From assembly GCA_963845085.1 (NCBI GenBank), contig CAWJQI010000001.1, positions 32,001 to 96,000 on the forward strand: 64,000 bases of DNA. The letters run 5' to 3'. Numbering within the stretch: the first letter of the stretch is position 1; every line of letters starts with the position of its first letter. The notes beneath the pieces were generated by a model that ran no database searches, was not told the DNA's origin, and saw only the letters and a list, made by a program, of their open reading frames with translations. The position numbers and the translations under genes are program-made. Origin of the DNA: Candidatus Fermentibacterota bacterium. Its GTDB lineage: Bacteria > Fermentibacterota > Fermentibacteria > Fermentibacterales > JCC-6. Shown piece after piece: positions 4,805 through 23,186 of this stretch.

Positions 4805-7288
4805 CTAACGCAAAACAAGCAATTCCTGTGCCCGTGGGTCTCCCTGCTCTGCAGCCAGGCCGTACCACCTGGCTGCCTCCCATTTATCCTTGGAAACGCC
4901 TGTGCCGGTTTGGTAACATAAACCAAGGTTAACCTGCCCATCCGGGTTTCCCTGCTCAGCAGCCAGGCGGTACCACTTCACGGCTTCATGTTCGTCCTTG
5001 AGAACGCCAATACCGTGTCTGTAGCATTCCCCGAGATTGAACTCTGCATTAGAGTTACCTTGTTCAGCAGCCAGGCGGTACCACTTCACGGCTTCACGTT
5101 CATCCTTTGGAACGCCTGTGCCGTTTTCGTAGCATGTACCAAGAACCCATTGTCCAAATTCATATCCCTGCTCGGCAGCCAAGCGGTACCACTTCACGGC
5201 TTCACGTTCGTCCTTGGAAACGCCGGTGCCGTTTTCGTAACACGAGCCAAGGATGTATTGCCCAAACAGGCTTCCCTGCTCAGCAGCCAGGCGGTACCAC
5301 TTCACGGCTTCACGTTCATCCTGAGGAACGCTTATACCCTTTGCGTAACACCAACCAAGGTTGTGTTGCCCATCCGGGTTTCCCTGTTCAGCAGCCAGGC
5401 GGTACCACTTCACGGCTTCATGTTCGTCCTTGGTAAGGCCTGTGCCGGTTTGGTAACATAAACCAAGGTTAACCTGCCCATTTGGGTTTCCCTGCTCAGC
5501 AGCCAGGCGGTACCATTTCACGGCTTCATGTTCGTCCTTGGGAACACATATGCCGTTTTGGTAACATAAACCAAGGTTAACCTGCCCATTTGGGTTTCCC
5601 TGCTCAGCAGACAGGCGGTACCATTTCACGGCTTCACGTTCGTCCTTGGGAACGCATATGCCGTATTGGTAACAGAAACCAAGGTTGTTTTGCCCGTATG
5701 GGTTTCCCTGCTCAGCAGCCAGGCGGTACCATTTCACGGCTTCACGTTCGTCCTTGGGAACGCATATGCCGTATTGGTAACAGAAACCAAGGTTGTTTTG
5801 CCCGTATGGGTTTCCATGCTCGGCAACCAGACGGTACCACTTCGCGGCTTCATGTTCGTCCTTGGAAACGCCTGTGCCGTTTTGGTAACACGCCCCAAGG
5901 CAGATCTGCCCTGTTGGGTTTCCCTGCTCTGCAGCCAGGCGGAACCACTTCACGGCTTCACGTTCGTCATTGGAAACGCCTGTGCCATTTTTGTAACACC
6001 AACCAAGACTGAACTGCCCGTCCGGATTTCCCTGCTCAGCAGCCAGGCGGAACCACTTCACGGCTTCCTCTTCATTCTTGTCCCTGTGAATACTGTGCAG
6101 CAAGAATGATCCAAAAAGCCACTGTGCGACTGCGTATCCCACCTTAGCTGCCCTTTCACACTCGGCAACCATATAAGGAGATATCTTCTTCTTGTCTAAC
6201 TCAGTACTTTGACCTATGCACTTCTCGAACTCCGCAGCGATCTCATCAATCCGTTTCTTATCGATGCTTCGGGATTCCTCCGGGGTTGCGAAGAGCTGTG
6301 CGGTTAATCCCATGCAGGCAAGCAGTTCAACTGCAAGATCTCGAAGAGGAATGGCAACGGTCGTATCGATGCCGTCTTCTTTCACAAATGTCATGAGGGT
6401 TTCCTTATGAGCTTCCTTGGGTGATATACTCAGCCTTTTCGCCAGCACTTTTATGGTGCGAAGACTGTCGCTGTAGTCTTCCTCAATGCGTGCAAGGGAT
6501 GAGTAGAAGGGAACGGCAATCTCATCCAAAACGAACTTCGAAGGAATAAAGTTTCCCGCTTCATCCGCAGGAAGGCAAACAAGTTCCCTAAAGGATTGAA
6601 TGGAACACTTGTCAATCTCGTCGATAACTCCTTCTATGAAGTCACCGATCGTGATCATCTTTCTCGCATCTAGTCCCACTTCCCGAACGGCTTTCTGAAG
6701 ATACTTGATCTCCTGAAGATTCCAGTTACTTGCCTTGAGCTGGTAGAAGTCTTTCACCACTCTGAGGAGCCTTATGTACGGGGAGAACTTCTGATCGTAG
6801 TCGTACATCTCCAGAGTGAGGAGCCAACTGTGAATGTTGGTAGCCACCTCAAGTCTTCCCACTCGGTCCTCCAGGGCGACGAACCTCAAGTCAATACGCT
6901 CAGCGAGCTCGATGATTGCTCTGCGGGTCTCTTCTTCTTTCACGGCCAATGTCAGCAGGTTGTTTTTTACCGCGATAATGGAATGGGCCAGCATCAGATC
7001 GCGCTCCTGAAGGATGTTCAGATAGCGCCATCCAATCCTCTGCATCTCAATCAGATCGTTTTGGTTCGCACGCTCCAATGCGCTGGTCTTGCCGCTGAGT
7101 TTACTCCAGCATCTCTTGAAGAAGCCTTTGTCCTTGTACTCATCAAGCCGATCCTCGGTGCATGAGAGCAAACGCGTGGCATCCAGGGCAAGTTGCTGTG
7201 TTTCAAGCCCCTGCTGTGAGGCTCTGGCGATGAGAGGCTCAAGTTGCTGATCAATGCAGGCCAGTTCTTTGGAAGAATAGTTAAACAT
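4805..7288 (-). CDS. Protein with helical N-terminal domain and 12 C-terminal Sel1-like repeats
   Basis: 827 aa ORF with repeated EAVKWYRLAAEQGNPxGQxNLGxCYxNGxGV units. Confidence 0.92.
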   Translation of the reverse strand: MFNYSSKELACIDQQLEPLIARASQQGLETQQLALDATRLLSCTEDRLDEYKDKGFFKRCWSKLSGKTSALERANQNDLIEMQRIGWRYLNILQERDLMLAHSIIAVKNNLLTLAVKEEETRRAIIELAERIDLRFVALEDRVGRLEVATNIHSWLLTLEMYDYDQKFSPYIRLLRVVKDFYQLKASNWNLQEIKYLQKAVREVGLDARKMITIGDFIEGVIDEIDKCSIQSFRELVCLPADEAGNFIPSKFVLDEIAVPFYSSLARIEEDYSDSLRTIKVLAKRLSISPKEAHKETLMTFVKEDGIDTTVAIPLRDLAVELLACMGLTAQLFATPEESRSIDKKRIDEIAAEFEKCIGQSTELDKKKISPYMVAECERAAKVGYAVAQWLFGSFLLHSIHRDKNEEEAVKWFRLAAEQGNPDGQFSLGWCYKNGTGVSNDEREAVKWFRLAAEQGNPTGQICLGACYQNGTGVSKDEHEAAKWYRLVAEHGNPYGQNNLGFCYQYGICVPKDEREAVKWYRLAAEQGNPYGQNNLGFCYQYGICVPKDEREAVKWYRLSAEQGNPNGQVNLGLCYQNGICVPKDEHEAVKWYRLAAEQGNPNGQVNLGLCYQTGTGLTKDEHEAVKWYRLAAEQGNPDGQHNLGWCYAKGISVPQDEREAVKWYRLAAEQGSLFGQYILGSCYENGTGVSKDEREAVKWYRLAAEQGYEFGQWVLGTCYENGTGVPKDEREAVKWYRLAAEQGNSNAEFNLGECYRHGIGVLKDEHEAVKWYRLAAEQGNPDGQVNLGLCYQTGTGVSKDKWEAARWYGLAAEQGDPRAQELLVLR
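4830..6075 (-). repeat. 108-bp tandem coding repeats (Sel1 units)
   Basis: Recurrent cagccaggcggtaccacttcacggcttca at a 108-bp period; the units at ~5621 and ~5729 are near-identical. Confidence 0.9.
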
Positions 7289-7300
7289 CGTTGTAGCCTC

Positions 7301-8770
7301 TCAGATTCTTTGAATGGCTTTTTTCATGTCGTCACCGAGTTGATCGAGCACACCTATCTGCACCGCTGTCCTCTGATCCAAATCGGCGTCAACCACAAGG
7401 AAACCTACAAATACCATCTGACCATAAGCCATGGCCTCAGCACAGTCACGCATGGCGTCTCCAGCGGCGACCAGTGCCGTTGTATTGGCAATGACCTCTC
7501 TGTAGGGCTTTTCGATCCCGTTTTCAATGGCGATGGTGACAGCCAATCCAGCAACAAGCGCTCCAGCCATTCCTGCAAGAATTGGAACCAACCCAGCAGT
7601 TGCTCCAAGTGCAGTTGCAACGCTTACTCCGATCGAGGAACCGAAAACTGCTCCGCCTGTTTGAAAGATATTCTTGCCGACACGCGTCTCCATCTGTGCA
7701 GGTGTCATCTTGCCGACGGCGACCAGAACCATGCACTCGATCGCATCAATGGCACATATAGCAGCACCGCCCACGCCACCTCGGACAAGCATTCCCTTCA
7801 TGGCCTGCTGGGCCACCAACTGAGGTGCAAGTCTTGTGACTACACTTACTGCACCTGCGGCAGCCGCAGCTTTAAGTGCACTGTCAGCAGAAGCGACCGC
7901 CGTGGTTTTGATGATACCTCTTACAGCTTCCGCCCGTGTGATCTTACCTTCCTTGACAAGTTTCAGATACTGTGCCGTAGAGAGAGTTCCGGCGATTATC
8001 GCTGAGATAGCTGCGGCCCCGGCTGCGGCCATTCCCATCTGCTGCAATGTTGAACGGTCCATGTACCCGTCATGATAATCTTGCCGAACCTCTTTGCCTT
8101 CAGGGGTGTCTTTGGCAACCTCGCGAGCTTCATCAAGAGTGGTTGGACGGGATTCAATTCCATCGTGCTGAATCTTATCATTGACACGGTCTTTCACGTA
8201 TTCGGCTGCATCCGCAACATGAGGTCTTGAATCCGATTCCCTCATTTGTGTATGACCAAGCTCATCTTGAATGCTTAGCGTCCCATCCGTGGGATGTACT
8301 TGATCCTTAGGACCAACAAACACATCTACTCCATCATAACGCTGAGTACGGTCTGGACGGACCTCACGCATGGCTTTCGCCGTAGCTTCTGAAGTTCCGT
8401 AGTTTTTATGCTGGATTGTGATGACGGTTTTACCGTTTTCCACCACAATAGAGTCGGTGGAGGGATGATTTGCACCTAAGGGCCAAGCCGGGTCTCGATC
8501 TGTCAATGCTCGTGCAGTCTTGTTCTGGAGTATGGCATCCAAGTTGAATGTTTCAGTGTGTATCTCCTCGGCAACAAATCCACCTTTGATAGGAATAGTT
8601 TGATTAGTACCCGTGATTTTCTGGATGTAGTCGTTCCGAGCAGCGATTTCATCGACCATCTTCAGCATCTGATCCTGCGCGAACTTCGGCCAAGCCGCAT
8701 TGGCTGCAGCAAGATTACCCATCAACCGAGCATCGATGGAAGAGCTATCCTTTTCTTCAACTGAGTTCAC
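7301..8770 (-). CDS. Hypothetical protein with possible nuclease-like N-terminal domain and Gly/Ala-rich hydrophobic C-terminal helices
   Basis: Long ORF; GTG at 8770 follows a GGAGGT RBS; motifs GFVAEEIH..TFN.DA and D..(x)n..QHK; several Gly/Ala-rich hydrophobic segments. Confidence 0.75.
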   Translation of the reverse strand: MNSVEEKDSSSIDARLMGNLAAANAAWPKFAQDQMLKMVDEIAARNDYIQKITGTNQTIPIKGGFVAEEIHTETFNLDAILQNKTARALTDRDPAWPLGANHPSTDSIVVENGKTVITIQHKNYGTSEATAKAMREVRPDRTQRYDGVDVFVGPKDQVHPTDGTLSIQDELGHTQMRESDSRPHVADAAEYVKDRVNDKIQHDGIESRPTTLDEAREVAKDTPEGKEVRQDYHDGYMDRSTLQQMGMAAAGAAAISAIIAGTLSTAQYLKLVKEGKITRAEAVRGIIKTTAVASADSALKAAAAAGAVSVVTRLAPQLVAQQAMKGMLVRGGVGGAAICAIDAIECMVLVAVGKMTPAQMETRVGKNIFQTGGAVFGSSIGVSVATALGATAGLVPILAGMAGALVAGLAVTIAIENGIEKPYREVIANTTALVAAGDAMRDCAEAMAYGQMVFVGFLVVDADLDQRTAVQIGVLDQLGDDMKKAIQRI

Positions 8771-8817
8771 GAAACACCTCCACAAATAGAGTGTGAAAGG
8801 TAGTTTGAAGATGGGAA

Positions 8818-8845
8818 AGATTAACAGCATTCCACAGGGCGTCAA
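8818..8845 (-). promoter_or_regulatory. Sigma70-like promoter for the 8770-4805 two-gene operon
   Basis: TTGACG-N16-TAATCT on the minus strand, ~50 bp upstream of the GTG. Confidence 0.45.
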
Positions 8846-9003
8846 GCAAAAGCTACAGAGCATTCCGCAGCCGCCCTCATCCCCTACCGCCGTGCAGCAC
8901 TCTTCCTCGTGATCCTCGGGCTGAAAGTCCTCCTGGGTCAAAGCAAGTCTTGGGCAAAGGCCACCGTTTTCACAGCAGCCCCCACCCTGCCAGGATGAGA
9001 AGG

Positions 9004-9357
9004 TTAGCTCGCTTCCTTCATCTCCACCCGGATGCAGTCCACGATCTCCCCGAAAGCCTCGCAGGTCGTGGGCTTCAGGACGATCCTCTCACCCGGCCAG
9101 TTGATGGCCTTGGGCTCGTGGAGAACCTTCGCAACGGCCTTGGCGTTGGTCTTGTTCAGGATCAGCTCCTTCTCGGTCTCCCTGAACCGGAGGATGTACT
9201 TCTCGGCCTTCTGGCCCGTGGCCATCTGAACCTTGTCCCTCAGGACCTCGGAGATGGTCAGGGACACGGGCTTCCCCTCGAAGTCCGCTGCCCGCAGGTA
9301 GCGGCTGGGGAACATCAGGTCAACGTGGAACTCAGGGTTGTCGTTCTTCTTCGGCAT
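9004..9357 (-). CDS. Phage-type hypothetical protein (FPSRYLRAAD motif), next to the exonuclease
   Basis: MPKKND...FPSRYLRAADFEGK...LILNKTNA...WPGERIVL...DCIRV. Confidence 0.7.
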   Translation of the reverse strand: MPKKNDNPEFHVDLMFPSRYLRAADFEGKPVSLTISEVLRDKVQMATGQKAEKYILRFRETEKELILNKTNAKAVAKVLHEPKAINWPGERIVLKPTTCEAFGEIVDCIRVEMKEAS

Positions 9358-9358
9358 C

Positions 9359-10218
9359 TCATTCCTCCACACCGTCGAAATCGACGGCTTCGTTGTCTGT
9401 TACAGCCCACGCCGGGGCTGCGAGTTCTGATTCCACAGGCCCGGGTCCCGGCCATTTCCCGGAAGCGGTGCACTCCTTCACCTGCCGGAGCCAGCCGATG
9501 TACTCCTCCCGCGCCCTGTCCAGGGAGTCCTCTTCCAGCCAGTAGAGTCGGCAGGCGTGGGGAGGATCCTTCTCCACGGCGATGATGCCGCAGCGCAGGA
9601 GAACACCCTTGCCGGAGGATGACGGCGTAGGCTTCCTGGTACATGGCTGGCCTGGTGGAAGTAGCCCAGGTTCCAGGCATGGGCGGAGAAGGTTCTGGGA
9701 TCGATGGAGCTGGTGGTCTTCAGATCAAGGATGGCTCCCTCTACTGAGATCCAGTCCAGCCTCCCCTTGCAGGCCAGCCCCGTCGGCGGGATTGTTCCAG
9801 AACAGGCTGACCTCTGGGAAGCCCTTCTCGAGCAGGGCGGCCACTTCGGGGGTTCCCCTGACGGAGTTCCTTATGGCCAGGGCGGTGTTGTACTCGGACT
9901 CCCTCAGGATGGAGCGCCCCTGCATCGTTGCCTCGTCTGCAAACTGCTGATAAGCGTTGCCCCTGCGGTCTCCCGGCCATAGGGCGTAAGTCGAGCTGGA
10001 ACCTCTCGGGCTCGAAGACTGCAGTGTGGGTCGCCCTTCCCAGAAGCATGGCCGGTGTCTCCGCCGGAGGGTGTCTGAAGGGCGTACTGGTAATGAAGCG
10101 GGCTCTTCGCCATGTGCTTCAGCGTGGAGAAGTTGATCCCCACGGCAGCGGCGTAGTCGGCGAACCGCATCTGCAGCCCGGGCCGCTTCGTTTTTGGGAC
10201 GAGTGTTCTGGTTGCCAC
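9359..10218 (-). CDS. RecE/exonuclease VIII-like PD-(D/E)XK nuclease (DUF3799-like), frameshifted
   Basis: Fragments INFSTLKHMAKSPLHY, AMLLGRATHTAVFEPERF, EVSLFW, LDLKTT and VEKDPPHAC across several frames. Confidence 0.82.
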
Positions 10219-10231
10219 GGCAACCTCCGTT

Positions 10232-10450
10232 CTATTCTGTGTCGGCGCCCAGCTCTTCCGCTGTGAAGGCTCCCACCTCGGGCCTCATGCCGTCCTGGAC
10301 AAGAAGCCAGAACACACCGTCGGCCCTGTGGATGACACCCTCTGCTGTGAGCCGGATGGCTTTGATCTGAACTGCTTCCCAGGAATCCAAGGGACCGCCG
10401 ATGATTTCCGGATCGACCCCTCCCCGGGCCAGGAGCAGATAGTAGTTCAT
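10232..10450 (-). CDS. Small hypothetical protein
   Basis: ORF coupled to both neighbours in the minus-strand run. Confidence 0.5.
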   Translation of the reverse strand: MNYYLLLARGGVDPEIIGGPLDSWEAVQIKAIRLTAEGVIHRADGVFWLLVQDGMRPEVGAFTAEELGADTE

Positions 10451-10818
10451 CTGGTTCGCCTTCCCTTCTTCCTCCACTTGGAGAACCTTTCCAGATCACG
10501 GGCACACATGCTGGCTGCCGTTGATATCACAGCGATGTCATCGAGGTAGCCGGCGACTGGAATGAAGTCGGGGATCAGGTCCATGACCCAGATCAGGTAG
10601 AGGATTGCCGCAACGATGGTCACTATCACTTCCACCGAGGCCTTGTACTCCCCATGAGAAGTGGCACTGATGTACTCCAGGAACTCGAGGATCTGATCGA
10701 ACACAGGGTCCAGTGAGGGGTTGCTGATGATCCCTTGTACCCGCTTCGTTTCCTCTCTGGTAAGGTATTGCCGGCCCTTGCAGAGAATCGTCTTGAACTT
10801 GTTCCATGCTTGTTTCAT
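10447..10818 (-). CDS. YkvA/DUF1232 family protein
   Basis: AAILYLIWVMDLIPDFIPVAGYLDDIAVI signature. Confidence 0.85.
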   Translation of the reverse strand: MKQAWNKFKTILCKGRQYLTREETKRVQGIISNPSLDPVFDQILEFLEYISATSHGEYKASVEVIVTIVAAILYLIWVMDLIPDFIPVAGYLDDIAVISTAASMCARDLERFSKWRKKGRRTR

Positions 10819-11023
10819 GGGCACCTCCGGGCAATTGCTTCGCCCGGGCTCACTGCCCGCACCCGCGTAAGGGTTCCCCCGGGCCTGAACGCAGGTACAA
10901 ACCCACATCAGGCCCCAAAGGGGTCTCTCAGGTCATGTGCGTGATTACTTTGGCCTTTGAGAAGCGGGCAGTATGGAATGAGCCCGGACGGGCGTGAAGA
11001 CTTCTGAGAGCCTTGAATGAGAC

Positions 11024-11827
11024 TCAGGCGGCGAGTTTGTCCACGAGGTTGCCCAGGAAGTAGTCGCCGACCTGCTTCGGAGGTGGTGATGAGGGCCCGG
11101 CCCCTGCCGTTGTAGGTGAGGCGGTGGGTCATCTCCTGCATGAGGTCCCAGAGGGTGTGGGCGTTGCCGAGGTTCTGGACGATGGGACCCCAGTCCCTGT
11201 TGGGCAGGGAAACGTTCTTCGCCACGGTGGCCAGGGTCTTGAGGTTCAGGCGGATTTTGGAGAGTGTGGCGATACGAGGAGCGATCTCTTCAAGGGAAGC
11301 AACGCCGTTCTGGATGACGGAGACAGCTTCCTTGAGATCGAAGCCTTGAGCAGCGGTGTGCTTCAAGGCATAGGTCGAGAAGTACCGAGGGCTCATCAGG
11401 CCATTGGTGCAGCTCAAAACGAAGGCCATCAACACGATCCTGAATTTGGCCGAGCCGTCGTAGGAATTCTCGACTCTCAGGCCGAGACGAGACGGCATCG
11501 CCAACTTCCGGGAGCTCGACGATCTGGTCGCTGCGGTAGAGGGTGGAGAGGAACCGACCTGTCCATATCGTCTTCTCCTCCACCCACCTCCACTTGGAAA
11601 GGGAAGTGATCTCCCGGGCTGTCTGCTGGGCCAGGCTGTTGGAGATGAGCTGATAGCCCTGGCTGTGGATGTTGATGCACTCCCAGGTGCCGTTGTCGTT
11701 GAGGATCTCGACACCCACCTGGGGGACGGCTTCCCCGTTCACGGAGACGGGGGCCAGCCTAACGGGGGCGAAGGGATCCGTCACGTTCAACTGTGCTCCG
11801 AATCGGAGCGAGCTTGTTACTGGTCAT
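11024..11827 (-). CDS. DUF932-family phage/plasmid protein, frameshifted
   Basis: HSQGYQLISN ... LGLRVENSYDGSAKF ... VLSCTNGLM ... KH motifs across two frames; ends approximate. Confidence 0.75.
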
Positions 11828-12046
11828 GAGAACTCCTTTCAGCGCCGGCTGAAACGCCGGGCAACATCACTGGCCGTGCGGGCCATGGTGATGATGGTTT
11901 TGAGGGCCAAAGCGATCCTGAGTATGGGAACGTGCATAGGAGACTCCTTTTGTAAGTGGTCATCTACATTATATTTATAACGTATAATGGGGGGTTTGCT
12001 GGTCGACAGCAAAGATGGGACTGAGGAAGCGAGTCCGATAAGGAAG

Positions 12047-12194
12047 ATGGACTGCGACTACCGAAGACCCATATGTGCCTTAGGCGGTCTAGCGCCGGAT
12101 GAGTATGCTGCAAGCCAATGTCTGGAAGCGGAATATGTATGTTGAAACAACGATTCCTAACCCTGCGGAGGGTCTACCTTTTGGCAAAGGCGCA
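12047..12194 (+). mobile_element. Degenerate IS3-family right-end remnant
   Basis: Translates as DYRRPICALGGLAPDEYAA, resembling the OrfB C-terminal RPHSALGGLTPxEYA; followed by an IR-like end in CA. Confidence 0.5.
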
Positions 12195-12460
12195 GAGAAA
12201 TATTATACTAATCAGTAATGTCTTTTAAAAATAGGGAAAACTAGAGATAGTGAAAAAGGCAAATGTTGATTTGCTACCTAATCTAAATCACTACTAATGT
12301 AAGTGCAGTGGCGAAAGAGATTACAGTGAGAATACTTAACGGAAGAATTACTTGGAAGCAATACTATAGCAACGAAATCCTAAACATCGATAATGTGTCT
12401 TTAGAACCATTAATATGACATTGTTCAATATCTGTTGTCCAAAAGAAATGGAGAATTAGT

Positions 12461-13267
12461 ATGCAACATGTATGTAGGTACCATAGCGGGTTACTTATAA
12501 TATGCATTATTCTTTTTATTTCAATATCAGCATCTGCATATAGATTTGCATATGATGAAGATAATGACATCATTATTGATACACTCAATGATCGGCAATG
12601 GAAAATCGCACCATACTCGAACAGCTGTACTCGCGTCGAAGCCAATGAATGGTGTCGTAACCTTGAGGGCAATTGGTATTTGCCTTCTGTAGCACTACTA
12701 AATGATCTTTATTGGTCGGGTATAACTGCGCGAGATTGGGGATATTTTGATATAAATCTTAACGGATCATCAATGTCATTTGTTTGGTCTTCTGATCGCG
12801 GTACATCTACCGATTTTTTGGTGAAGGCATATGACTTTGCTAGTGGCCAGGCCAGTGAAGTGTATTCTAATGTGGAATATGCTTGTAGAGTATTTGCAGT
12901 GAGACGAACCCCTGGCGATATCAACAGATTTGTTGAATATGATGATTCATTTCTTGACACTGTTACGGGATTTGAGTGGATGGTATACGAAATTAGCCCT
13001 TGTACATGGACAGAAGCTGAAATCTACATCAATAGTATTGGCAATGGGTGGAGAATGCCAACAAACAATCAATATATGGAATTATATGAAGCTACAATAG
13101 GGATAGAGTCTGAAGGACCTTTAGGGGAAGTTAAGAATACTTTTTGGTCTTGTACAACTGAAGGGTTGAGGGATCCATCAGTAGCCTTTGTGTTTTGCAT
13201 GTCTTTTGGCTCAAGCTTTGTTTTCCGGATAGATAGAGATGTAGCTAGTGTTTGTGTAATTCGATAG
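12461..13267 (+). CDS. Secreted protein with two DUF1566 (Lcl-type) domains
   Basis: Signal peptide; two units D..TG..W...TW.EA...C..L..W.(L/M)P...L..LY...WS...(C)V(I)R; AT-rich. Confidence 0.75.
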   Translation: MQHVCRYHSGLLIICIILFISISASAYRFAYDEDNDIIIDTLNDRQWKIAPYSNSCTRVEANEWCRNLEGNWYLPSVALLNDLYWSGITARDWGYFDINLNGSSMSFVWSSDRGTSTDFLVKAYDFASGQASEVYSNVEYACRVFAVRRTPGDINRFVEYDDSFLDTVTGFEWMVYEISPCTWTEAEIYINSIGNGWRMPTNNQYMELYEATIGIESEGPLGEVKNTFWSCTTEGLRDPSVAFVFCMSFGSSFVFRIDRDVASVCVIR

Positions 13268-13338
13268 TGATAAGTAAAATGAATAGCAATGAACAAAAAT
13301 GCATTTTTATAGTGTAAGGTCCATGAGATCTCATATGC

Positions 13339-13475
13339 TGTGGTCATCCCCTCTATAACTGGTCCAATCGGACTAACACAAAGTCTTAGATTAACATACG
13401 GGGGTGGACAGATCATGAAGCGGCATTCGAACGAGCAGATAGCCTTTGTGCTGAGGCAGGCAGAGAGCGGTGACC
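13339..13475 (+). mobile_element. IS3-family left end with truncated OrfA
   Basis: TG-initiated IR-like sequence, then MKRHSNEQIAFVLRQAESG from 13415. Confidence 0.65.
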
Positions 13476-13610
13476 AACCTTCACATTTCCCTACATTTTT
13501 CAATATTGCCCTGGTTGAGGTTCAGCATAGTATGTGGTATGCTTCCTTGCCTCGGCAGCAGGTGTCAACGCCGGTTATGAATGCTACAGATTGTCGACTT
13601 GGATGCGTCA

Positions 13611-14199: not shown

Positions 14200-14285
14200 G
14201 ACCCTAGTGAGGATGAATCCATTGCCCAACCCAAACATCCACTTAAGTATTGATTTTTGAATCCTATCCTTTTCATTTCATGCTT

Positions 14286-14345
14286 GCACAACGCTTAGTA
14301 TCAGTGGCGGTGCGAAGCGCCGTCCGTTGCATGCTATTGTTGGGC
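14286..14345 (-). other. Integron attC site (60 bp)
   Basis: Minus strand GCCCAAC AATAGC ATGCAACGGACGGCGCTTCGCACCGCCACTGAT ACTAAGC GTTGTGC: RYYYAAC inverse core, L boxes with an extra G, central hairpin, GTT core; overlaps the upstream gene's stop codon. Confidence 0.85.
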
Positions 14346-15326
14346 GACTGAAGCTTGGATGTTCCACTTTGGCGGATACCACTGAGGGACCGGCGACTGG
14401 CGCGGCGTGAACTTCTGCTTGATGCGGGTTCGTCCTGATTCTCCGTCGATCTCGGGATGCGCGACACGCGCGTACTTGCTGACCTCGCAGAACACGTTCT
14501 GACAATCGATGAGCTGCAGGCTACGTCCCCAAAGGCTCTGGAACTTCATACCCAGCCTCTTGAACTCGTCGTCCGCACGCTCGGCCATAACCTGGATGAT
14601 CTCCGCCTCCGTCAGGCCCGCCGTGTCTTTGAAGCACTTCCGGATTCCGTCCCGTGCGCCAGGCCCCGCGACGACAAAGTCCATCTCCGAGAAGTCAGTC
14701 AGCTCGCTGTAGTTGAGGTCGATCGCGAACTGGAACGCGAGAAAGTCCCCCAACGACGGATAGCCGCGCAGTAACTCGAACGCTGCTCGCAGCGAAGTCG
14801 TCTTCGGGAGCTTCCTTGGGGCTCCGTCAGCCATCATGTACTCGACGAGCCGCAGGTGGTTCCGGTGCTTCCGTGGGCTCCCGAACGCTGGCGAGGGCAT
14901 GATGTACGCGGCAGAGTAGACGCGCTGCCCGTCTTCAATCAGCCGATCCAGCACCTTCGCGTAAGTATCGAAGGCAAACTCTCGCCAGCACAGTGCACCG
15001 AGCTTCGTGCGGAGTGCTTCCCACGTCTCGATCTTGTTGAAGAGCTTGAACAGGATCGTTCGAAAGAAGACCTCCTCTGCCTTCTGCGAGCCTTCATAGA
15101 TCACGTGACGGATCAAGTACTGACTCACCCGGTCTGATGCACGATACGTGTTCGTGAACCGATGCACGCGGAGGATCGGGTCATCGGTCCACGGCGGCAT
15201 GCTGCCCAGCACGCGGCGCATGAACATCTCCTGACGCTCCGAAGCGAAGCGCCAGTACGTGTCGAATACGGGTGTCGTCTTGAGCACACGCCCGCCTTGA
15301 AGCCGGATCTCGTAGGGCGTTGGCAT
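14334..15326 (-). CDS. aGPT-PPlase1 / 5-hmdU DNA kinase helical-domain family protein (DNA base hypermodification)
   Basis: TYWRFASERQ...PWTDDPIL..HRFTNTYRASDRVSQY...LFKLFNKIETW...GDFLAFQFAIDLNYS...GPGARDG...DCQNVFCEVSKY. Confidence 0.85.
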   Translation of the reverse strand: MPTPYEIRLQGGRVLKTTPVFDTYWRFASERQEMFMRRVLGSMPPWTDDPILRVHRFTNTYRASDRVSQYLIRHVIYEGSQKAEEVFFRTILFKLFNKIETWEALRTKLGALCWREFAFDTYAKVLDRLIEDGQRVYSAAYIMPSPAFGSPRKHRNHLRLVEYMMADGAPRKLPKTTSLRAAFELLRGYPSLGDFLAFQFAIDLNYSELTDFSEMDFVVAGPGARDGIRKCFKDTAGLTEAEIIQVMAERADDEFKRLGMKFQSLWGRSLQLIDCQNVFCEVSKYARVAHPEIDGESGRTRIKQKFTPRQSPVPQWYPPKWNIQASVAQQ

Positions 15327-15328
15327 AC

Positions 15329-15886
15329 TTAATCGTTCCACTCGGTGCCCGTGCGGTTCTTGCCGAACGAGTCCCTTGAGTTGTCGGGCAACTCGCGGCT
15401 CTTCCGCAGATAAGCCTCATGAATCCACCCTTGCACGGATTCGGCGTCCTCCGACCAGTTGTGGATGCTCGCGAACCCGCACTTGATGTTGTCGTAGAGC
15501 CGCGGCGGGATCGTTCCGCGGTTGTACTTCAGCCGATCGACACGACCATAGTGCTTGTCGTAGGTCGGAAGCAGGATGCCGAGGAGCCCCGAGCGCGGGT
15601 TTGCCTTTGTGTCTCGGATCGACGAACCGATCTCCCAGTCGACATGCTTTCGCTGCCACGTAAGCGCGCCGATTAGTACGACAGTTACTGATGTGTCCCG
15701 AAGGTACTCGTCTCGAATCTTCTGCCGGATGGTCTCGGTAGGTAGGTTGGGATCGATGTCGCCGACATTCACTGACCCAGGAACGATGGCTCCAAAACTG
15801 TTCCCGAAGCGGAGCTCGAAGATGTTCTTGTATGACTCGTCAAGCTCGTGGTGATAGCTAACGAACACCTTGTGCGTGTTACTCAT
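15329..15886 (-). CDS. TIR domain protein (ThsB/DUF1863-like)
   Basis: HKVFVSYHH...IRQKIRDEYLRDTSVTVVLIG..TWQRKHVDWEI, with the catalytic Glu. Confidence 0.9.
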   Translation of the reverse strand: MSNTHKVFVSYHHELDESYKNIFELRFGNSFGAIVPGSVNVGDIDPNLPTETIRQKIRDEYLRDTSVTVVLIGALTWQRKHVDWEIGSSIRDTKANPRSGLLGILLPTYDKHYGRVDRLKYNRGTIPPRLYDNIKCGFASIHNWSEDAESVQGWIHEAYLRKSRELPDNSRDSFGKNRTGTEWND

Positions 15887-16930
15887 GTGATTCCTCTCGA
15901 AGATGAAGGCAGCCCTTGTCTGGCCTGAACGCCGTGCACTCGCTCAAGCCAGGCAGACCAAACTTGAACAAGCTGCGGATTTGTACAATCAGCCATGAGT
16001 GCTTGGGAGTGATCCAACCGGCCACGCCGACGAGCCGAATCGGCAGCAAGCACGCGGAGTAGGTTGCGATAACCGACCGGGGCATCATCAATCGCGGCGA
16101 TATGGGAGACCTGTGTCTCGTTGAGCTCCGGCGCCGTAAGCATGGTCATCCGCCGATACATCTCGCTGACGAGTTGCTCACCTCGGTCGATGGGCAAGGC
16201 AAGTGAATCGGTGTTCCTCTCCTCGGCCACCGGAGCGCCACAGGAGAACTCATCCAGGGCATCAGCGTAGATATGGAGGCTGTCACTCCACTGGTGATAC
16301 CCGCCAAGCTCGAGGCCAAGCCATCCAGCCATTACCTCCTGCAAGAGAGTGAATTGTGTAAGGTTATTTGGCAGACCCCGAAAGACGTCGTTACTTCGCA
16401 GCACCTGTGTCCACTCGAGGCGTCCGTCGCGAACCTTCAGCATCGACATCATGTTGCACGGCACATCCGCACTGCGGGGCGCCCCGTCGGCATGCGGTAG
16501 GTCGGTAAGGACATCCCAGAACTGGAGAGCGACCTGTCGGCTCTTCGGATCTGAGGACAAAGCAGCGCACGCTCGCTTGACCTGGTCGACACCGAAGTGC
16601 TTCCGCAGACGGTGGCCGTAGGCCCCCGTCATAGGTGGACCCATGGCCCGCGAACTTGGGCAAGCTCCGAAACCAGTAGTTCAGGACGGCGGCATCGTTG
16701 CTGCCAGCCAGAATCCAGAGTGCATCAGCGATGGCGAAGGCTGGGTTGACCCCAGGCCGACGGGAGAGGACCCAGCGCTGGCGAGGATCTTCAACCTCGA
16801 GGCCAACGTGCAGAAGCTCCAGCGTATCTCCCACGCGGCTTGGCTGCTTCGCCTGTGCTGCGGTCGCAATGACTGCTGCATGGGCTTGACGCCAAACCCC
16901 GTCAGCCGTTCGCGCGCGAAAGGTCTCCAT
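15883..16930 (-). CDS. Thymidylate synthase-family protein (frameshift near 16630)
   Basis: NPAFAIADALWILAG, GAYGHRLR, SRQVALQFWD, DVPCN (catalytic Cys), RSNDVFRGLPNN, SLHIY. Confidence 0.9.
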
Positions 16931-16932
16931 GA

Positions 16933-17595
16933 CTATTGTCTCGCCATCTTGCGTCCGCCGTTCTGGCAGCCCGGTTGTTGGCGAACGTGGCGCGCGAACT
17001 CCAGAGGATCGCCCTGGAAGCCCCACTTCCCCTGTTGCTCAAGCCAGCTCGCGAATGCAGTAGCGAGCTCGTCCTTGAAAACACGATAGCCTCGCGCCTT
17101 GCAGCAGATGTCCTGGTCTGTCTTGCGGAAGGGCCGAAAGTGCTCCGGGATCACCGGTGCGGCCTCTCCCCAGTAGACGAACTTCGTGCCGACGAGTACG
17201 CGATTCGTGCTTGTGTCCCAGGCGATGTTGGCCTTGTTGGGTCGGCCGTTCTCCAAGCTGTGGTGCGAGTCTGCCTGGACCCACCGCTTGCCTTCGCGGT
17301 GATAGATGTTGTCGCCGTAGATGACTTTGAGGCTGCCGTTCAGGTTTGGACGCTTTCGAAGGAATCGTGGATCGGTCCAATACTTCTCGAAGTCGAGGAC
17401 CTCGGCCACCTGCATCGCGTAGATGAGTCGGCCAGTGAAGTCATACCTCGACTTCGCGCCCGTCCCGATGATCCAGTCACCAACACTCGCACCGGCGCGG
17501 ATCCTTGGCTTACACGTCGCCAAAGTGCAGAACCCGTGGAACGGGTTCGGGGCGAATCCGAAGTCACGCGCGACGATGTACGAGTAAAGCCTCAT
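16933..17595 (-). CDS. Nucleotide modification-associated domain 2 (Nmad2) protein
   Basis: MRLYSYIVARDFGFAPNPFHGFCTLATCKPRIR...GDWIIG...YGDNIY...SHHS. Confidence 0.85.
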   Translation of the reverse strand: MRLYSYIVARDFGFAPNPFHGFCTLATCKPRIRAGASVGDWIIGTGAKSRYDFTGRLIYAMQVAEVLDFEKYWTDPRFLRKRPNLNGSLKVIYGDNIYHREGKRWVQADSHHSLENGRPNKANIAWDTSTNRVLVGTKFVYWGEAAPVIPEHFRPFRKTDQDICCKARGYRVFKDELATAFASWLEQQGKWGFQGDPLEFARHVRQQPGCQNGGRKMARQ

Positions 17596-18078
17596 CCGCA
17601 GGTATACCTCTTGCCTACCCAGACCGGTGTCGTGCGCGGGTTCCCCGTGGCGGGGTCGTCCCAACCGGTAATCTTGCCGTTGATCGCATCGACGACGCGA
17701 TCTCGCTTGCCAACCGACAACCGCAGCGTCGCCGTGCTTCCGAAGCTCGTCCGGGATGTCTGCGTCCGTCGCGCCCTGAGCGAACACGCCGACGACGTTC
17801 TTGCCCTGCTCGATGGCGTACTTGATCTCCCATTTCACCCAGTCGCTTTTCACCGTGTCGTGCGTGATTAGCACTGCTAGCGTGCTGGCCCACTGGATGC
17901 GGGGAGCGAGGATTTCGCGCTTGATGTATTCCTCGTTCGACGCCGCGTTGGGCTTATCGCTGTTGATCGACCCGTCGCGCACCTCCATCCCGGCCTTCGA
18001 GATGAGATCCTTCAGCTTCGGCAGAAGGTCGTCATCCTCGTGTACGTGAGAGATGAAGATGTTCTTCTTGTCCGCCAT
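17592..18078 (-). CDS. TIR domain protein (ThsB-like); frameshift near 17705
   Basis: KNIFISHVHEDD...ILAPRIQWASTLAVLI...SDWVKWEIKYA; the shifted frame ends DRVVDAINGK...RYTCG-TGA, overlapping the Nmad2 ATG. Confidence 0.88.
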
Positions 18079-18083
18079 GCTCT

Positions 18084-20144
18084 TCACTCCGCGCTACCAG
18101 CCATCGCTGGACGGTTGCATTCCTGCATGCCGTGAAGAATCAGTTCTACGATCCGCTCTGCTGATCGCGTCATGGCGAGCTCACGGTTCTCATCCTCGGT
18201 CAGCCCGTTCTTAATGCCGGCTATACCGCGCGACTTCAGCTCATCGGCGATCGCGTCGTACTCATCCCATGATTCACCCCTCCGCTGGTAAATCACTCGC
18301 AGCTCCTCGGAGTACGGTGCTGTCTTCTGGTGGTCCCACTGTAGCTCGGGCCTGGAACGGCCCTCCAACGCATCGAACACTAGCCGAGCGCAGCCACCGA
18401 ACGCGCCGACGAGATAGACAGGGCGCTCGGTACGGATGGTCAGGAGCGCTTCCTCAAGCACTCCCGGCATTCTGCCCCGATAGCCATCCCCGGCTGGCCC
18501 GAGACGGCCTCCGACGACGACGCGCGCCGCGACCTCATCGGCTTGCCGCTGCCGCATGATGGTAAGGCCGCGAGCCCATGCAAACCGTCGCATCGCGCGA
18601 GTCCACGGGGATGTCCGTTGCCGGCGCTGCAACGAATGCCGTGATCGACCGTCTCGTTGAGCCCTGCGGGCCTCGCGCAACGGCGCACCTCCACCAGCGC
18701 GCTCTGTCTATTAAGGCGAGCGACGACGGCTGGGGTAGTCGCGACAGGCCACGCCAAGTACGAGACCAGCTCTGCCGGGCGCGCGGCGCCAGACACAGCC
18801 TCGCCTCGAAGTTGCTCGATGGTCGGGTCGTACAAGAGGTCCGCGAGACGGACGGTATAGCCGACGGAGCCGAGGTGGCCGCCGTACGCAAGGCGAACTC
18901 CGGCTACCAACAGGTATCGCGAGATCTCGAGCAGCACCTCGTCGAGGTGCGGCTTGCGCAGACCGAATCGCGGGAGGTCTTCCGACTCCGAAATCGATAG
19001 CGCGACAAGGAGCTGCTGCGCCCGCAGGTCGTGGGCCTTGGCATGGCGCTCAAGAGGGGTCTCGACCGTGTACTCCCGCGAGGGATAGCACGGCGAGCTC
19101 CTCTGTTCCGAGCGGAGGATCGGGATACAGCAATGGCTTCGCCTTGTCCCGGTGCACCACCGTCACGAGCTCAGGACCCGAGGGGAGGATGTCGTCTCCA
19201 GGGCGTGCGCGCTGACGAAGCATCTCCTCCGCGTATGCGTGACGGAGGGTCTCTCGAAGAAGCGAGTCGACGACATCTCGCGGGTCGTCACGCCACCGGA
19301 GTACGGGCGCATTGCCTGCGTATGGGAAGCGCCGAATCTCGCGCTCCTGTAGCGCGTCGACGATCACGAACGGCCTCTGGTAGCGCTTCGCGAAGAGGAC
19401 CTCTCTGCGGCACCACGACCGTGACGAGTAGGCATCGGTCGCAACTGCGAGGAGCGCAGAGTCGGTCACTCCGTCCTCAATCGCCTTGGCGAAGCGAGAA
19501 CCGGACGCGATATCTCCGCAGTCGAACCAGGTCTTCTCCGGCTGGTTCGCCTTCAAGTACTCGAGCAGCGAGTTAACAACGCCGGGCTTCTTGCCCACAT
19601 CGATCTTCGCGTGGCTGAGGAAGATGGTCACCGCAGGGGCGTCGTCGTCGGTCGGGTGCGGGCGCAGACGGCGGATCAGAAGGTGCAGCATCCGACGCGC
19701 CACGAACTTCTTGCGCTCCTCATCATCGGGCTCATCGAACGCTCGAAGGAAGCTCAGGTCTTTGAGGCGCTCGTCGACTGGCCAAGCAAAGCTACTGAGG
19801 CTCACGGGGAGGAAGCGATGGTTGGGAGACTCGTCGCAAAGCTCGCGGAGCTTGACCGCGTAATCCCCCCACGTGATACCGCCGTCCTTGCCGGTCCTCG
19901 AATGCACGACAAGCTGGTCGTCAGCCAGCAGCACGACGAGCACGCGGTCTGCCTCGTCGCTGAGTCGCGGCTCGGGCGGCATGAACGAGTAGTCGTCAGG
20001 CGTGAAGCTGGTGGGGATGCGAAGGCCTGGAACCGCAGCGTCATCGTTGATGACCGCTCGGAGGTACTCTGCCATTGCGGAGGCATCGGTCGACGCAGGA
20101 TGAAACTCGAATTGAACAAGTACTGGAAAGCGAAGTCCGCTCAC
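18084..20144 (-). CDS. TIR + SLOG domain fusion protein (frameshifted)
   Basis: TIR: IFLSHAK...WFD..DIASG...AYSSRSWCRREVLFAK. SLOG: ALSISES...LAYGGHL...MR...ARVVVGG...GRMPGVLEEA...PVYLVGAFGGCA. GAGGAG RBS before the GTG at 20144. Confidence 0.85.
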
Positions 20145-20171
20145 GTATTAACGCTCCTCATGTTCTTAATC

Positions 20172-20256
20172 GCCCAACAATTCTTCTACAGCTGTCTGCT
20201 TGTAGGATCTTCTTTTTCAATGCCCCGAGAATGATGTTCCTTCTCTTCCATGTCAA
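20172..20256 (-). promoter_or_regulatory. Cassette core site GTTGGGC with candidate attI and Pc-like promoter
   Basis: GTTGGGC at 20178-20172 is complementary to the attC inverse core; TTGACA (20256-20251)-N17-CATTCT (20233-20228) points into the operon. Confidence 0.55.
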
Positions 20257-20348
20257 TACCTATAGCACGACATGAAACGTCGTGTACACGCCATTCTTTG
20301 TTCTCCGGTGTTTTTGAACGGTTGGAAAGGTATCCAGTTCGGAGGTGC

Positions 20349-20762
20349 TTACCTTACAATCCCTACCTGCCTGTAGAAACTCAGGAAGTCCTCCTCCCCC
20401 GTCTCCTCCAGGATGAGCCCGTCCACGATTCGGTACAGGGTCATTCCGGTCCAGGTTGTTTTGATTCCGGAGGCGGGGATGCCAAGAATGGGTGCGGAAT
20501 GGGTTCCGGTGAAGCTCCAGCGGAGCACCACCTTTTCTCCACCGTCCACCACATCAAGCACTGTTACCTCGGAGTCCGGAAAGGCTGCCCTGAAGCCCTC
20601 CATCACCCTCCTGTAAAGCCGTGGGCCGTGGATTACCATGGGTATCACGGGGTACTTCACTGTGATTTCGGGATGAGCCAGTTCCTTGATAAGGTCGAGG
20701 CTTCCCTGGCCCCAGATCTCAAGGAAGCGTTGGGCTATGTCTGCGTTTTTTGTTGCAGCCAT
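20349..20762 (-). CDS. SnoaL-like ester cyclase family protein
   Basis: FRAAFPD...GEKVVLRWSFTGTH...LGIPASG...YRIVDGLI. Confidence 0.88.
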   Translation of the reverse strand: MAATKNADIAQRFLEIWGQGSLDLIKELAHPEITVKYPVIPMVIHGPRLYRRVMEGFRAAFPDSEVTVLDVVDGGEKVVLRWSFTGTHSAPILGIPASGIKTTWTGMTLYRIVDGLILEETGEEDFLSFYRQVGIVR

Positions 20763-20822
20763 CTTCCCTCCCATCGTGTTTTCCTGCATCGGCAGAGAAG
20801 TCGGAGCGTGCTCCCCGCCCCC

Positions 20823-23186
20823 CTACCACCTCTCCGGCACACTTCTCCAGATCTGGTCGAAGGCTGCCTGCCAGCTCTTTGATTCACCGAGTTGCCTGGC
20901 CTTCTGGGCCATCGCTTTTCTTGCTGGTTCGTTGTCGGTGAGCTCAATGATCTTCTGGGCGAGGTCCGCGGCGTCCCTTCCGTGGTAGGTGAGGCCTGTT
21001 TCGTTTGGTCTGATGATCTCCTGGGGGCCGCCCATGTCGGTTACGATGGCGGGGAGGCCTGAGGCCTGTGCTTCGAGAACGCTGTTGCCGTAGGTGTCGG
21101 TGGTGGATGGGAAGACGAAGATGTCTGCGGAGGCGTATGCCTTTGAGAGGTCCTCGCCCGACATGCGGCCGGCGAGGTAGCCGCCGTTGCCGAGTATCCT
21201 GCTGCCCAGCTCTCCCATCCAGGGGCCGTCGCCGACTACGAAGAGCTCAATGTCCTGCCTGGTCTGCCTGACGATGTTGAATGCTTCGGCGAGGACGTCG
21301 AGGTCTTTTTCCCGGCTGACCCTGCCGGTGTAGAGGAGTTTTGTTGCCTCTTTGGTTCCGCCGAACTTGGTGAGGAATGCTTCGTCTCTCCACTTCGGTG
21401 AGAAGGTCTCGGGGTCGGTGCCCCTGGGGAAGGGTTCCATCTTCTTGCGGTCTACGCCGAGTGATGCGAGGTCGTCCATGTAGTAGGTGCTGGGGACCAT
21501 GACGCGGTCAACCATGCTGTAGAACCATGTCATGCCGCCCGCTGCGAACTCGCCCATCCAGGCGTCGGCCACTATCTCCCTGATGTGCCTGGGGAAGTCG
21601 GTGTGGTAGATGCCGACGGTGGGGATGCCGAGGATCTTCGCTGCCGCGATGACGGCAAAGCCCATGGGGCCGGGCGTGGAGATGTAGATCATCCCGAACT
21701 CGTTCTCCTCGAGGAACCTGAGGAGTTCGAGTATCGGGGGGATGGCGAGGGTTTTTGACGCGTAGTCGGGAACGGGGAACTCGGTCACGGGCTGGAAGTT
21801 CACAAGCCAGCCCGGGAAGGAGATCTGACGGCTCTGGCTTGTTACGAGGGCAAGCTCCTTGCCGTTGTCCATGGCGAGCCTTGCGAACCTTTGGAGGGTT
21901 CGGGAGACTCCGTTCAGGTCGTCTATGGTGTCGGTGACCCAGGCTCTTTTTTCCAAATTGTGGGCGGCGGGGGAAGCGATGTTGAGGTGCTTTGTGATGG
22001 TGTTGACCGATTCCCTGCCCCTCTTCCTGTCGAGGTAGGCTATGGGGAACGGGGCGTTGAGGAGGAATACCGGGAGCATGGCGTTGAGCGAGCCCACGGC
22101 GTCGAGCATGCGGCCCTCGCCGAACCTTGTCACCATGAGGCCGATGAACCTCTGGAGGAGGCGGTTGGTGAGGCGGTTGAGGATCTGGAAGGTGCGCTCC
22201 TCTATCCCCTCCTGGAGAAGCTCGGGGCTGCCCCTTCTGAGGTTCAGGTCACGTCCTATCTCTACGAGTTCGTCGCCGAGGAAGGTTTCGAAATCGGGTT
22301 CCCCCGACTTCTTCGCCTTCTTGAGAAGCTGGTGGAAAAGGAAGTCGGCCTTGTGCCAGAGTGTCGGTTCCTCTTCCTCAGTGTTGGTTTTCGGGCTGAA
22401 GAAGCTGTCGGCGGCCATGGTGGCGACCGAAGGGACCTTTTTGGCGTTGAGGGAGTGGCGGTAGAAGCTGTAGGCGATGGAGTAGACGGCGTATGCCGAC
22501 CTGGTGGCGGTTCCGTGTTCACCGCCGGGAACCCCCTCCCCGTTCCTTACTGCCTTCAGGAAGTCTTCTGTTGTTTTTGCCTTCGGAACCATGGTCCAGG
22601 TGAGGCCTATGAACCTTCCGCAGTGGTCGTCGCTTCCCGCGGTGCAGCCCGTGAAGCTCCGGCCCTTTATGGCTGCGGCCGTCTCGAGGGCTGCGCTGTT
22701 CTCCCACGAGGCGCGGGTGCCGTTCCTTACCTCGATGAGTTCCATCGCCTTCACAAGGTCGGTCCATTCACCGGGGGGAAGGTGCCCCCCCGGTGAGTAG
22801 AAGGGATGCGCCAGCGAGTGGGCGATTTGTTGGTCCCTGAGGTATTCGAGGAGTTCGAAGCCCCTTTCCCTCAGGGCTGATATCCTGTCGTGCTGTTGGT
22901 GGTCGATGCCGTAGACCAGGATGTGAACCATGCTCTTGCTCTCGGGCATTACCATGGCCACCTCTTCGCTCATGAACACCCCGGGAAGGCCATTTATCTT
23001 CATGACGCCGTCGATGGTGTTCATGTCGGTTATGGTGACGAAGTCCATGCCGCGCGAGCGGGCCTGCTCGTACACGAGTTCGGGGGGTGTGAAGCTCTCG
23101 GGAGCCTTGAGGGCCCGTAGTATCCAGCGCGCCGAAGTGGTTGAGGCGCTGGAATGAACGTGCATGTCACATTTCCGTGAAGTCAC
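20823..23186 (-). CDS. PHP domain + GT4 glycosyltransferase fusion
   Basis: DMHVHS, FVTITD, AHP, GSDDH at the N-terminus; GIYHTDFP, GRVSREK, DTYGNSVLEAQASGLP at the C-terminus. Confidence 0.9.
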   Translation of the reverse strand: MTSRKCDMHVHSSASTTSARWILRALKAPESFTPPELVYEQARSRGMDFVTITDMNTIDGVMKINGLPGVFMSEEVAMVMPESKSMVHILVYGIDHQQHDRISALRERGFELLEYLRDQQIAHSLAHPFYSPGGHLPPGEWTDLVKAMELIEVRNGTRASWENSAALETAAAIKGRSFTGCTAGSDDHCGRFIGLTWTMVPKAKTTEDFLKAVRNGEGVPGGEHGTATRSAYAVYSIAYSFYRHSLNAKKVPSVATMAADSFFSPKTNTEEEEPTLWHKADFLFHQLLKKAKKSGEPDFETFLGDELVEIGRDLNLRRGSPELLQEGIEERTFQILNRLTNRLLQRFIGLMVTRFGEGRMLDAVGSLNAMLPVFLLNAPFPIAYLDRKRGRESVNTITKHLNIASPAAHNLEKRAWVTDTIDDLNGVSRTLQRFARLAMDNGKELALVTSQSRQISFPGWLVNFQPVTEFPVPDYASKTLAIPPILELLRFLEENEFGMIYISTPGPMGFAVIAAAKILGIPTVGIYHTDFPRHIREIVADAWMGEFAAGGMTWFYSMVDRVMVPSTYYMDDLASLGVDRKKMEPFPRGTDPETFSPKWRDEAFLTKFGGTKEATKLLYTGRVSREKDLDVLAEAFNIVRQTRQDIELFVVGDGPWMGELGSRILGNGGYLAGRMSGEDLSKAYASADIFVFPSTTDTYGNSVLEAQASGLPAIVTDMGGPQEIIRPNETGLTYHGRDAADLAQKIIELTDNEPARKAMAQKARQLGESKSWQAAFDQIWRSVPERW

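Follow-up and report, generated by a model that had tools for sequence, protein, structure and literature searches.

The window analysed here is the whole stretch of 64,000 bp from Candidatus Fermentibacterota bacterium that corresponds to C1:32001-96000 of genome G000, an assembly of 2.45 Mb in 5 contigs that is 88% complete. We hold with considerable confidence that its positions 20177 to 14292 form one genuine integron cassette, which carries a six-gene and probably anti-phage operon and is docked at a second attI that has no integrase gene. A first-pass annotation of the same DNA had proposed an unusually large six-gene cassette at 14292-20177, to be looked for in other arrays. Both ends are indeed seen again in two further genomes, at the homologous loci L036 and L041. 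What that annotation missed is that the upstream flank is a host-family attI without integrase gene and that most homologs are not cassettes.

The elements that define the cassette are as follows.

14292..20177, minus strand: six-gene integron cassette of 5,886 bp that starts at the TT of the 5' core and ends at the G of R'; L036 and L041 have the same ends
14286..14345, minus strand (reads 14345-14286; the bottom strand is the plus strand): attC, 60 bp, R'' GCCCAAC, R' GTTGTGC, recognised by covariance model (46.3 bits) and fold
20170..20178, minus strand: 5' core of the cassette, GTTGGGCGA, located at the crossover of the attI and conserved in L036 and L041; its complement TCGCCCAAC is at 14347-14339
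20173..20274, minus strand: attI-type site and promoter region, homologous to the head of the array on contig C5 and to 7 sites in 4 relatives of the genus
20227..20256, minus strand: candidate promoter Pc, TTGACA (20256-20251), 17-bp spacer and a weak -10 CATTCT

Cassette ends

A covariance model of attC was made from 11 sites, none of them in the window: the C5 array of G000 supplied 8 and relatives 3. It was run with filters off. With this independently built model the site at 14286-14345 scored 46.3 bits (E 2.6e-9) and the runner-up in the whole 64 kb only 9.4 bits; the last stop codon (14336-14334) lies inside the site, as the first-pass annotation had claimed. For class 1 cassettes, used as control, the model gave 25.6 bits for aadA2, 16.6 for dfrA14 and 11-12 for a DUF1010 cassette. 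The plus strand of the site folds as a single hairpin with an AAC:GTT pairing probability of 0.97-0.98 and a folding energy that is unremarkable compared with shuffled sequences (z -0.79). An Rfam scan of window positions 10-24 kb gave no match, and blastn of the attC against plasmids found nothing better than E 6. A home-made fold heuristic yielded 211 candidates genome-wide, which was too unspecific, and the covariance model was used instead. The TTGTGC of the R' GTTGTGC is contributed by the next element.

At the other end GTTGGGC is found on the minus strand at 20178-20172, 28 bp ahead of the GTG start codon at 20144. It pairs with R'' at 7/7 positions (9/9 when extended) and the current R' at 6/7, which bears out the earlier statement that GCCCAAC complements this distant core better than its present one. 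A modelled circle-form attC has -17.9 kcal/mol, versus -12.4 kcal/mol for the integrated form. The 12-bp inverted repeat described earlier is a composite: 9 bp (GTTGGGCGA/TCGCCCAAC, kept in L036 and L041) are cassette-derived and the outer 3 bp are coincidental, because ATT belongs to the conserved attI (AGAAGAATT followed directly by GTT) and AAT to the attC spacer, which reads AAC or ATC in other copies.

Upstream of 20178 lie approximately 100 bp that do not form an attC and are 75% identical over 103-104 bp to G000:C5:159130-159232 (E 7e-12), and this attI/promoter element is present in 5 of the 41 genomes searched, all of one genus (4 of its 7 relatives). Seven of nine aligned copies keep the attI half; likeness extends to AGAAGAATT and GTT, with one variant, and stops there. 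In relatives the layout AATCA(T/G)T followed by GTT occurs ahead of full-length IntI matches at 9/12 loci, two of the remaining three being cut by contig ends, and CATGTCAAGCTATAACCCTTGACA also precedes the intact intI of relative G003 (TIGR02249, 323 bits, cut-off 265). The left border of the cassette is, judged by homology and position, an attI. The rule that a 5' core matches the R'' of its own cassette has internal controls, since in the C5 array 7/7 positions agree in six of the nine cassettes, 6/7 in one and 4/7 in two, and the first cassettes of G005 locus A and G002 locus B, two platforms described below, obey it as well. Because of these controls, and because the attI similarity ends there, GTTGGGC at 20178 marks a real crossover.

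The TTGACA of candidate Pc is unchanged in 9/9 aligned copies. An imperfect palindrome, GAGAA-N9-TTCTC (window 20227-20245; G000:C5:159185), covers the candidate -10 and is nearly invariant across the genus; we take it to resemble a Fur box. A Fur- or LexA-type regulon, both presumptive labels, was rejected, as scores of 29-30 occur at the two platforms only, the next being 21.9, which does not support a global regulon. Just ahead of the intI start in several genera (L107-L118), where an SOS box would lie, a conserved GTRTAC-N4-GTWYAC motif is found that is degenerate in the window. Its treatment as a global regulon (GTRWAC-N4-GTWYAC) was abandoned with 3 occurrences in G000 versus 2 in shuffles.

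Homologous copies

The cassette carries the following genes.

18084..20144, minus strand: gene A, N-terminal domain, TIR with catalytic Glu and SLOG cluster 2 (Pfam); a single 680-aa frame in homologs
17592..18087, minus strand: gene B, ThsB-like TIR with catalytic Glu (Pfam ThsB_TIR)
16933..17595, minus strand: gene C, Nmad2 (PF18753; Pfam)
15883..16930, minus strand: gene D, thymidylate-synthase (TS) fold (Pfam thymidylate synthase)
15329..15886, minus strand: gene E, second ThsB-like TIR (Pfam ThsB_TIR)
14334..15341, minus strand: gene F, HMUDK_hel (PF18723, aGPT-Pplase type), which reaches into the attC at its 3' end

A search with gene F confirmed 556 stretches, of which the best 80 were returned; the 21 closest were examined in detail and scored with the attC model, the other 59 being those with distant genes only in common. 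Across these best 80 of 556 loci DNA similarity never passes 20165 or 14290, so none of the similarity beyond the boundaries that would have spoken against a cassette was seen. An attC straight after gene F was found in 3 of the 21, namely L036 (47.6 bits) and L041 (20.7 bits), both from Planctomycetota, and L038 (56.9 bits), from the cultured strain Azotobacter chroococcum DSM 2286, whose contig begins inside the operon. L036 (5,991 bp) and L041 (5,997 bp) have GTTGGGCGA before gene A, TCGCCCAAC with the attC after gene F, intact genes and unrelated outer flanks; L036 also shows a tyrosine-recombinase fragment upstream and a second attC downstream. The junction pattern recurs in three metagenome contigs, none of which reaches the 5' end: L105 scores 51.7 bits, L106 scores 45.4 bits and has its next attC 1.7 kb further along, and L104 has a half site that the model does not match. 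Viral contigs gave 0 matches. The attC ends of L038, L105 and L106 each have a different R'.

The frame of gene F contains the attC and continues through it into the neighbour in L036 and L041, so that the tail of the protein (9 to 74 residues after PPKW) is set by the landing site. The idea that the stop codon inside the attC is a sequencing error was dropped, since L104 and L105 have the spacing of the window.

The order A-B-C-D-E-F is found in 13 of the 21 close homologs, all with MazG-MazG_C as gene D. This type is present in 16 of the 21, and only L024 and L031 have the TS gene of the window in the D slot. Gene A is lacking in L031 and gene E in L040, L042 has undergone rearrangement, and the remaining loci are incomplete or truncated where their contigs end. 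The earlier view that the six genes act as one unit therefore stands as regards the order common to 13/21 and has to be relaxed in that the D slot is swappable and two copies go without A or E.

Several homologs that are not cassettes have restriction-modification or BREX genes next to them. Around the 18 loci that lack an attC, seven tested neighbours, spread over eight loci, belong to hsdR, hsdM/hsdS, brxL or mrr. Gene A of the window is 83% like an island copy and 66-67% like the cassette copies; the junction of gene F and attC is alike in every cassette copy and unlike the tails of island copies. Since this junction looks homologous while the gene trees mix cassette and non-cassette copies, the comparison suggests that the operon was captured once and that the cassette later recombined internally with island copies. 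An alternative history that the data allow is an ancestral cassette from which the attC was lost repeatedly.

Two platforms and the integration event

The genus contains two platforms. Locus A, beside an M42 peptidase gene on C5, is the native integron. Locus B, the platform of the window, lies after a PHP-glycosyltransferase gene, was found in four genomes of the genus and is paralogous to the locus A integron. At locus A G003 retains an intact intI, G000 and G001 have a broken one, and almost nothing of the gene is left in G004 and G005; in G000 a 109-codon remnant with a stop is faced by the head of the 9-attC array. At locus B there is no intI sequence beside the attI in the window and no trace of it in G005 either. 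Of the other locus B copies, that of G002 has promoter, attI and different cassettes (HNH-like). In G004 nothing follows the promoter part, where decayed homology to the 5' part of intI is still discernible (score 61, against at most 36 in shuffles). G005 has the promoter part, no attI, and then a block of open reading frames (ORFs) read as a defence island (ATPase, cytosine methylase, helicase, adenine methylase). Locus B is a hotspot (L016 in G005:C1, L020, L022).

The anatomy of the cassette is observed. As to its integration, established integron biochemistry suggests that the operon would have arrived as a circle, its attC having GCCCAAC paired to GTTGGGC, and that an integron integrase would have recombined this circle into the attI, cutting between G and TT. 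The result would be GTTGGGCGA in front, the core GTTGTGC of the previous first cassette behind, and the operon in first position behind the platform promoter. Insertion probably took place while intI was still intact, either at locus A and acting in trans or formerly at locus B. As there is no intact intI in this 88%-complete assembly, the cassette is probably now frozen.

Alternative explanations

The alternative that survives best bears on the cargo alone and leaves the cassette reading untouched. It holds that the cassette is real and the cargo dead in this strain, the frameshifts being genuine decay after capture. Five gene-breaking +1 insertions occur in 5.9 kb, three in gene A (near 19072, 18645 and 18599), one in gene B (near 17707, where it fuses gene B to gene C in this assembly) and one in gene D (near 16631). 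About 14 kb of core DNA compared with two relatives contain 3 uncompensated +1 insertions (window 24897 and 25395; G000:C5:165763). The excess in the cassette (binomial p 0.054) and the decay of the integrase as well would fit a dead cargo. On the other side, all 8 events are +1 insertions, as expected of long-read consensus error, and no nonsense codons are present in the aligned coding parts of the cassette. Because the core genes show the same type of error and nonsense codons are absent, we favour assembly error for the five frameshifts, with insertion errors probably occurring throughout the assembly, and regard a dead cargo as a possibility of the lesser kind. The short contigs of two DNA sequencing runs (5-6% of words; those listed measure 158-355 bp) are from relatives and span neither junction; no RNA run was among those listed.

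Alternatively, attI and cassette could have moved as a block from locus A by insertion sequence (IS) activity or rearrangement, locus B never having been used independently. IS-like repeats do start 90 bp past the attC and the window copy of locus B has no intI sequence, but the platform sits at the same position in G002, G004 and G005, and the promoter part of the window is closer to locus B of G005 (93% identity over 59 bp) than to its own locus A (75%). We consider a block move improbable; an ancient duplication of the platform is compatible with the cassette reading.

Another alternative is that the attC belongs to a small cassette with F or E-F only, the other genes being separate and GTTGGGC a chance occurrence. 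GTTGGGC or its complement does occur 10 times in the window, some true attC sites escape the model, and the operon is found without attC in most homologs. However, the core is placed exactly at the attI crossover, the 11-mer of which occurs only twice in the genome, and an identical core precedes gene A in L036 and L041. Nor is there intergenic room for a further site, since all five junctions between genes overlap or abut, in the window as well as in the intact copies L036 and L041. A search for internal attC in 14346-20400 gave at best 6.9 bits on the wrong strand and 6.1 on the right one, in keeping with the earlier statement that no internal attC was seen by eye. Because the model is imperfect on unrelated class 1 sites this absence also rests on the gene junctions, which are the stronger argument of the two. 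A small cassette is thus very improbable and largely refuted.

Still less probable is a lone cassette at a random genome site by the attG/SALIN route set out in 10.1101/2022.09.11.507474: one attC in 64 kb with no intI nearby would receive the SALIN label from IntegronFinder, but the left flank is the conserved attI/promoter element common to the C5 array and the intact integrons of relatives, and G002 has other cassettes at the same site.

A number of points weigh against the reading of 20177-14292 as one large cassette with a functional operon. Neither a circle nor excision or integration was observed. The attC model is blind to the ends of blaIMP-10, aac(6')-Il and dfrA12, missing 3 of 6 expected ends on 3 plasmids. 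Eighteen of the 21 close homologs are without attC and of the three with attC only two show the 5' end. The cassette copies are not a clade in the trees of genes A, C and F (3, 3 and 5 changes), so that a single origin is not shown by them. No IntI above cut-off was detected in the 88%-complete G000 assembly and the intI trace at G002 locus B (36, shuffle maximum 37) does not rise above shuffles. A consensus promoter scan called 0 sites for candidate Pc. Genes A, B and D are frameshifted here, the count of six genes holding by comparison with homologs, and the predicted structure of gene A, weakly like ThsA and TRPM SLOG folds, has low confidence (pLDDT 61). Finally, excision and recombination drop with cassette length, as tested up to about 3 kb in PMC5371416.

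Cargo

Pfam identifies TIR_2 and SLOG cluster 2 in gene A, with the TIR Glu247 invariant in 10 copies. A language-model lead marks the N-terminal domain as TIR-like, and a sequence search of PDB with gene A found nothing below E 0.03. The closest solved relative of gene D, searched with the L031 ortholog, is a cytidine monophosphate (CMP) 5-hydroxymethylase (5b6d, E 4e-25). Gene D keeps the Cys and the TS-type Asn, at which position the CMP hydroxymethylase has Asp. In the thymidylate-synthase fold, Asn and Asp at this position follow a rule of substrate specificity, by which the Asn in place of Asp suggests a uracil base as the substrate. The cargo is foreign to the lineage, since PF18723 is present in just 2 of 61 related genomes.

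Domains, neighbours and similarity to the DS-4 system compared below indicate that the cargo is probably an anti-phage operon. In the mechanism that we cautiously favour, the TIR proteins B and E would sense infection and make an ADP-ribose (ADPR)-type signal, which would bind the SLOG domain of gene A and switch on its TIR NADase. This Thoeris-like signalling would be coupled to a DS-4-like pyrimidine module (Nmad2, D and F) that alters or senses modified thymidine nucleotides.

Neighbouring and other integron DNA

Two features flank the cassette and its platform.

14202..14291, minus strand: AT-rich stub (39% GC) of about 90 bp, probably the front part of the cassette that used to be first, interrupted by repeated IS-like sequence from about 14201
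20349..20789, minus strand: SnoaL-family gene, in the flank outside the cassette, with the conserved PHP-glycosyltransferase gene (20823-23186) on one side and the attI platform on the other

The repeat near 14201 is presumably IS3-like, to go by motif similarity; Pfam gave no match for it. Downstream of the cassette, window positions 1-13500 look like a mobile island with a serine recombinase, RadC, a Sel1 repeat protein, DUF932, an AT-rich Lcl_C gene and several repeated IS-like fragments.

The C5 array (L001, G000:C5:146690-159232) is a decayed chromosomal integron with 9 attC and a truncated intI. Its first position is held by a two-gene RES and TIR cassette of 1,093 bp. The array also contains toxin-antitoxin pairs, an IS insertion and a cassette of 3,259 bp whose content was read as a PHP-ATPase gene spread over three frames. 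Near the start of C1 two near-identical attC (G000:C1:888-965 and 7819-7896, 38.5 bits) lie 6.9 kb apart as part of a 1.6-kb direct repeat. After each of them come GTTGTGC and an apparent addiction-module gene; the pair flanks an ORF of 1,230 aa and part of the repeat is found again on C4. A lone toxin-antitoxin cassette, which we take to encode a DinJ/YafQ-like pair, is located at G000:C5:858088-858750 (L121; core GTTGTGC, R'' GCACAAC, 16.8 bits), apparently at a non-att site directly after a gene. The genome-wide search with the attC model, which scored 150 of 894 candidates, missed its attC at C5:858088. In relative G004 a stretch at C13:72000-81219 (L122) holds an attC array of 6 sites, and no intI or attI motif was detected within that stretch.

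Comparison with known systems

Cassette-borne defence systems have been collected by Darracq et al., who in 10.1101/2024.07.02.601686 count 783 of them with default IntegronFinder options and state that they "never exceed 2 components". Anti-phage cassettes are also known from mobile integrons (BRiCs; 10.1101/2024.07.02.601719). PMC4889954 gives about 2 kb for the largest known cassettes and 4 kb for the clustering threshold of IntegronFinder. The cassette shares with the anti-phage cassettes of sedentary chromosomal and mobile integrons its defence-type genes between attI and attC and its first position behind the platform promoter. It differs in having six genes and 5.9 kb, beyond both the 2 kb and the 4-kb threshold and about three times the usual stated upper size limit. 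Occasional multi-ORF cassettes of several kb occur in older reports, hence no size record is claimed. No description of this operon or of a cassette of this size was found in a literature search outside which most subscription journals lay.

The cassette is a well-delimited counter-example, its ends on both sides seen in three genomes, to the view that integron defence systems are streamlined to one or two genes owing to the poor recombination of long cassettes, and it offers a natural 5.9-kb substrate for work on the cassette size limit. A first-position cassette above 4 kb puts its attC beyond the default distance from attI or intI, which leads to a SALIN call with the upstream genes uncounted, and we infer that the 4-kb threshold hides such cassettes. 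As a tentative synthesis, which we put forward as possible and not as our firm view, integrons may carry entire immune operons of several genes and about 6 kb from phylum to phylum, each as one cassette of a size that 4-kb clustering hides. The cassette form may swap modules (TS versus MazG, gene A alleles) with island copies and so act as a shuttle between islands, and hosts may keep integrase-less satellite platforms of attI and promoter that are served in trans by one IntI.

The window resembles CALIN and SALIN elements (PMC4889954; 10.1101/2022.09.11.507474) in having one attC, no intI nearby and no intact intI in the assembly. Neither platform of G000 shows the intI next to attI of a complete integron, locus B having none and C5 a 109-aa remnant with a stop. 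Unlike CALIN and SALIN, the cassette has a conserved attI and promoter region on its left instead of an attG or another attC, and the platform, a second copy, has stayed at a single chromosomal locus throughout the genus. Some 'lone attC' sites therefore have a real attI in front without an integrase gene.

As regards the cargo, Thoeris type III is described in 10.64898/2025.12.03.692087 as consisting of several TIRs with a SLOG effector. ThsB-like TIRs with a SLOG-containing partner are common to the cassette and to Thoeris I and III, whereas the three nucleotide-modification genes embedded here set it apart. No SIR2 domain as in type I was found, gene A being TIR plus SLOG cluster 2, and PADLOC matches ThsB alone; for type III the NCBIfam model ThcB4 reached 14.9-15.2 bits (cut-off 220) and no other Thc model matched.

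Closest is DS-4 (working id NTTI), which was validated in E. coli by DefensePredictor (PMC13092281, Table S8). Four of the five DS-4 gene types are present here, that is the TS-fold protein, HMUDK_hel and a ThsB-like TIR directly followed by Nmad2; for the fifth, the deoxynucleoside monophosphate (dNMP) kinase, the cassette has no ORF or Pfam match. In contrast with DS-4 the cassette adds the TIR-SLOG protein and a second TIR and has another gene order, and most homologs have MazG-MazG_C for TS. The TIR-SLOG/Nmad2/HMUDK operon is thus a candidate system related to DS-4 that is delimited by the cassette's own borders.

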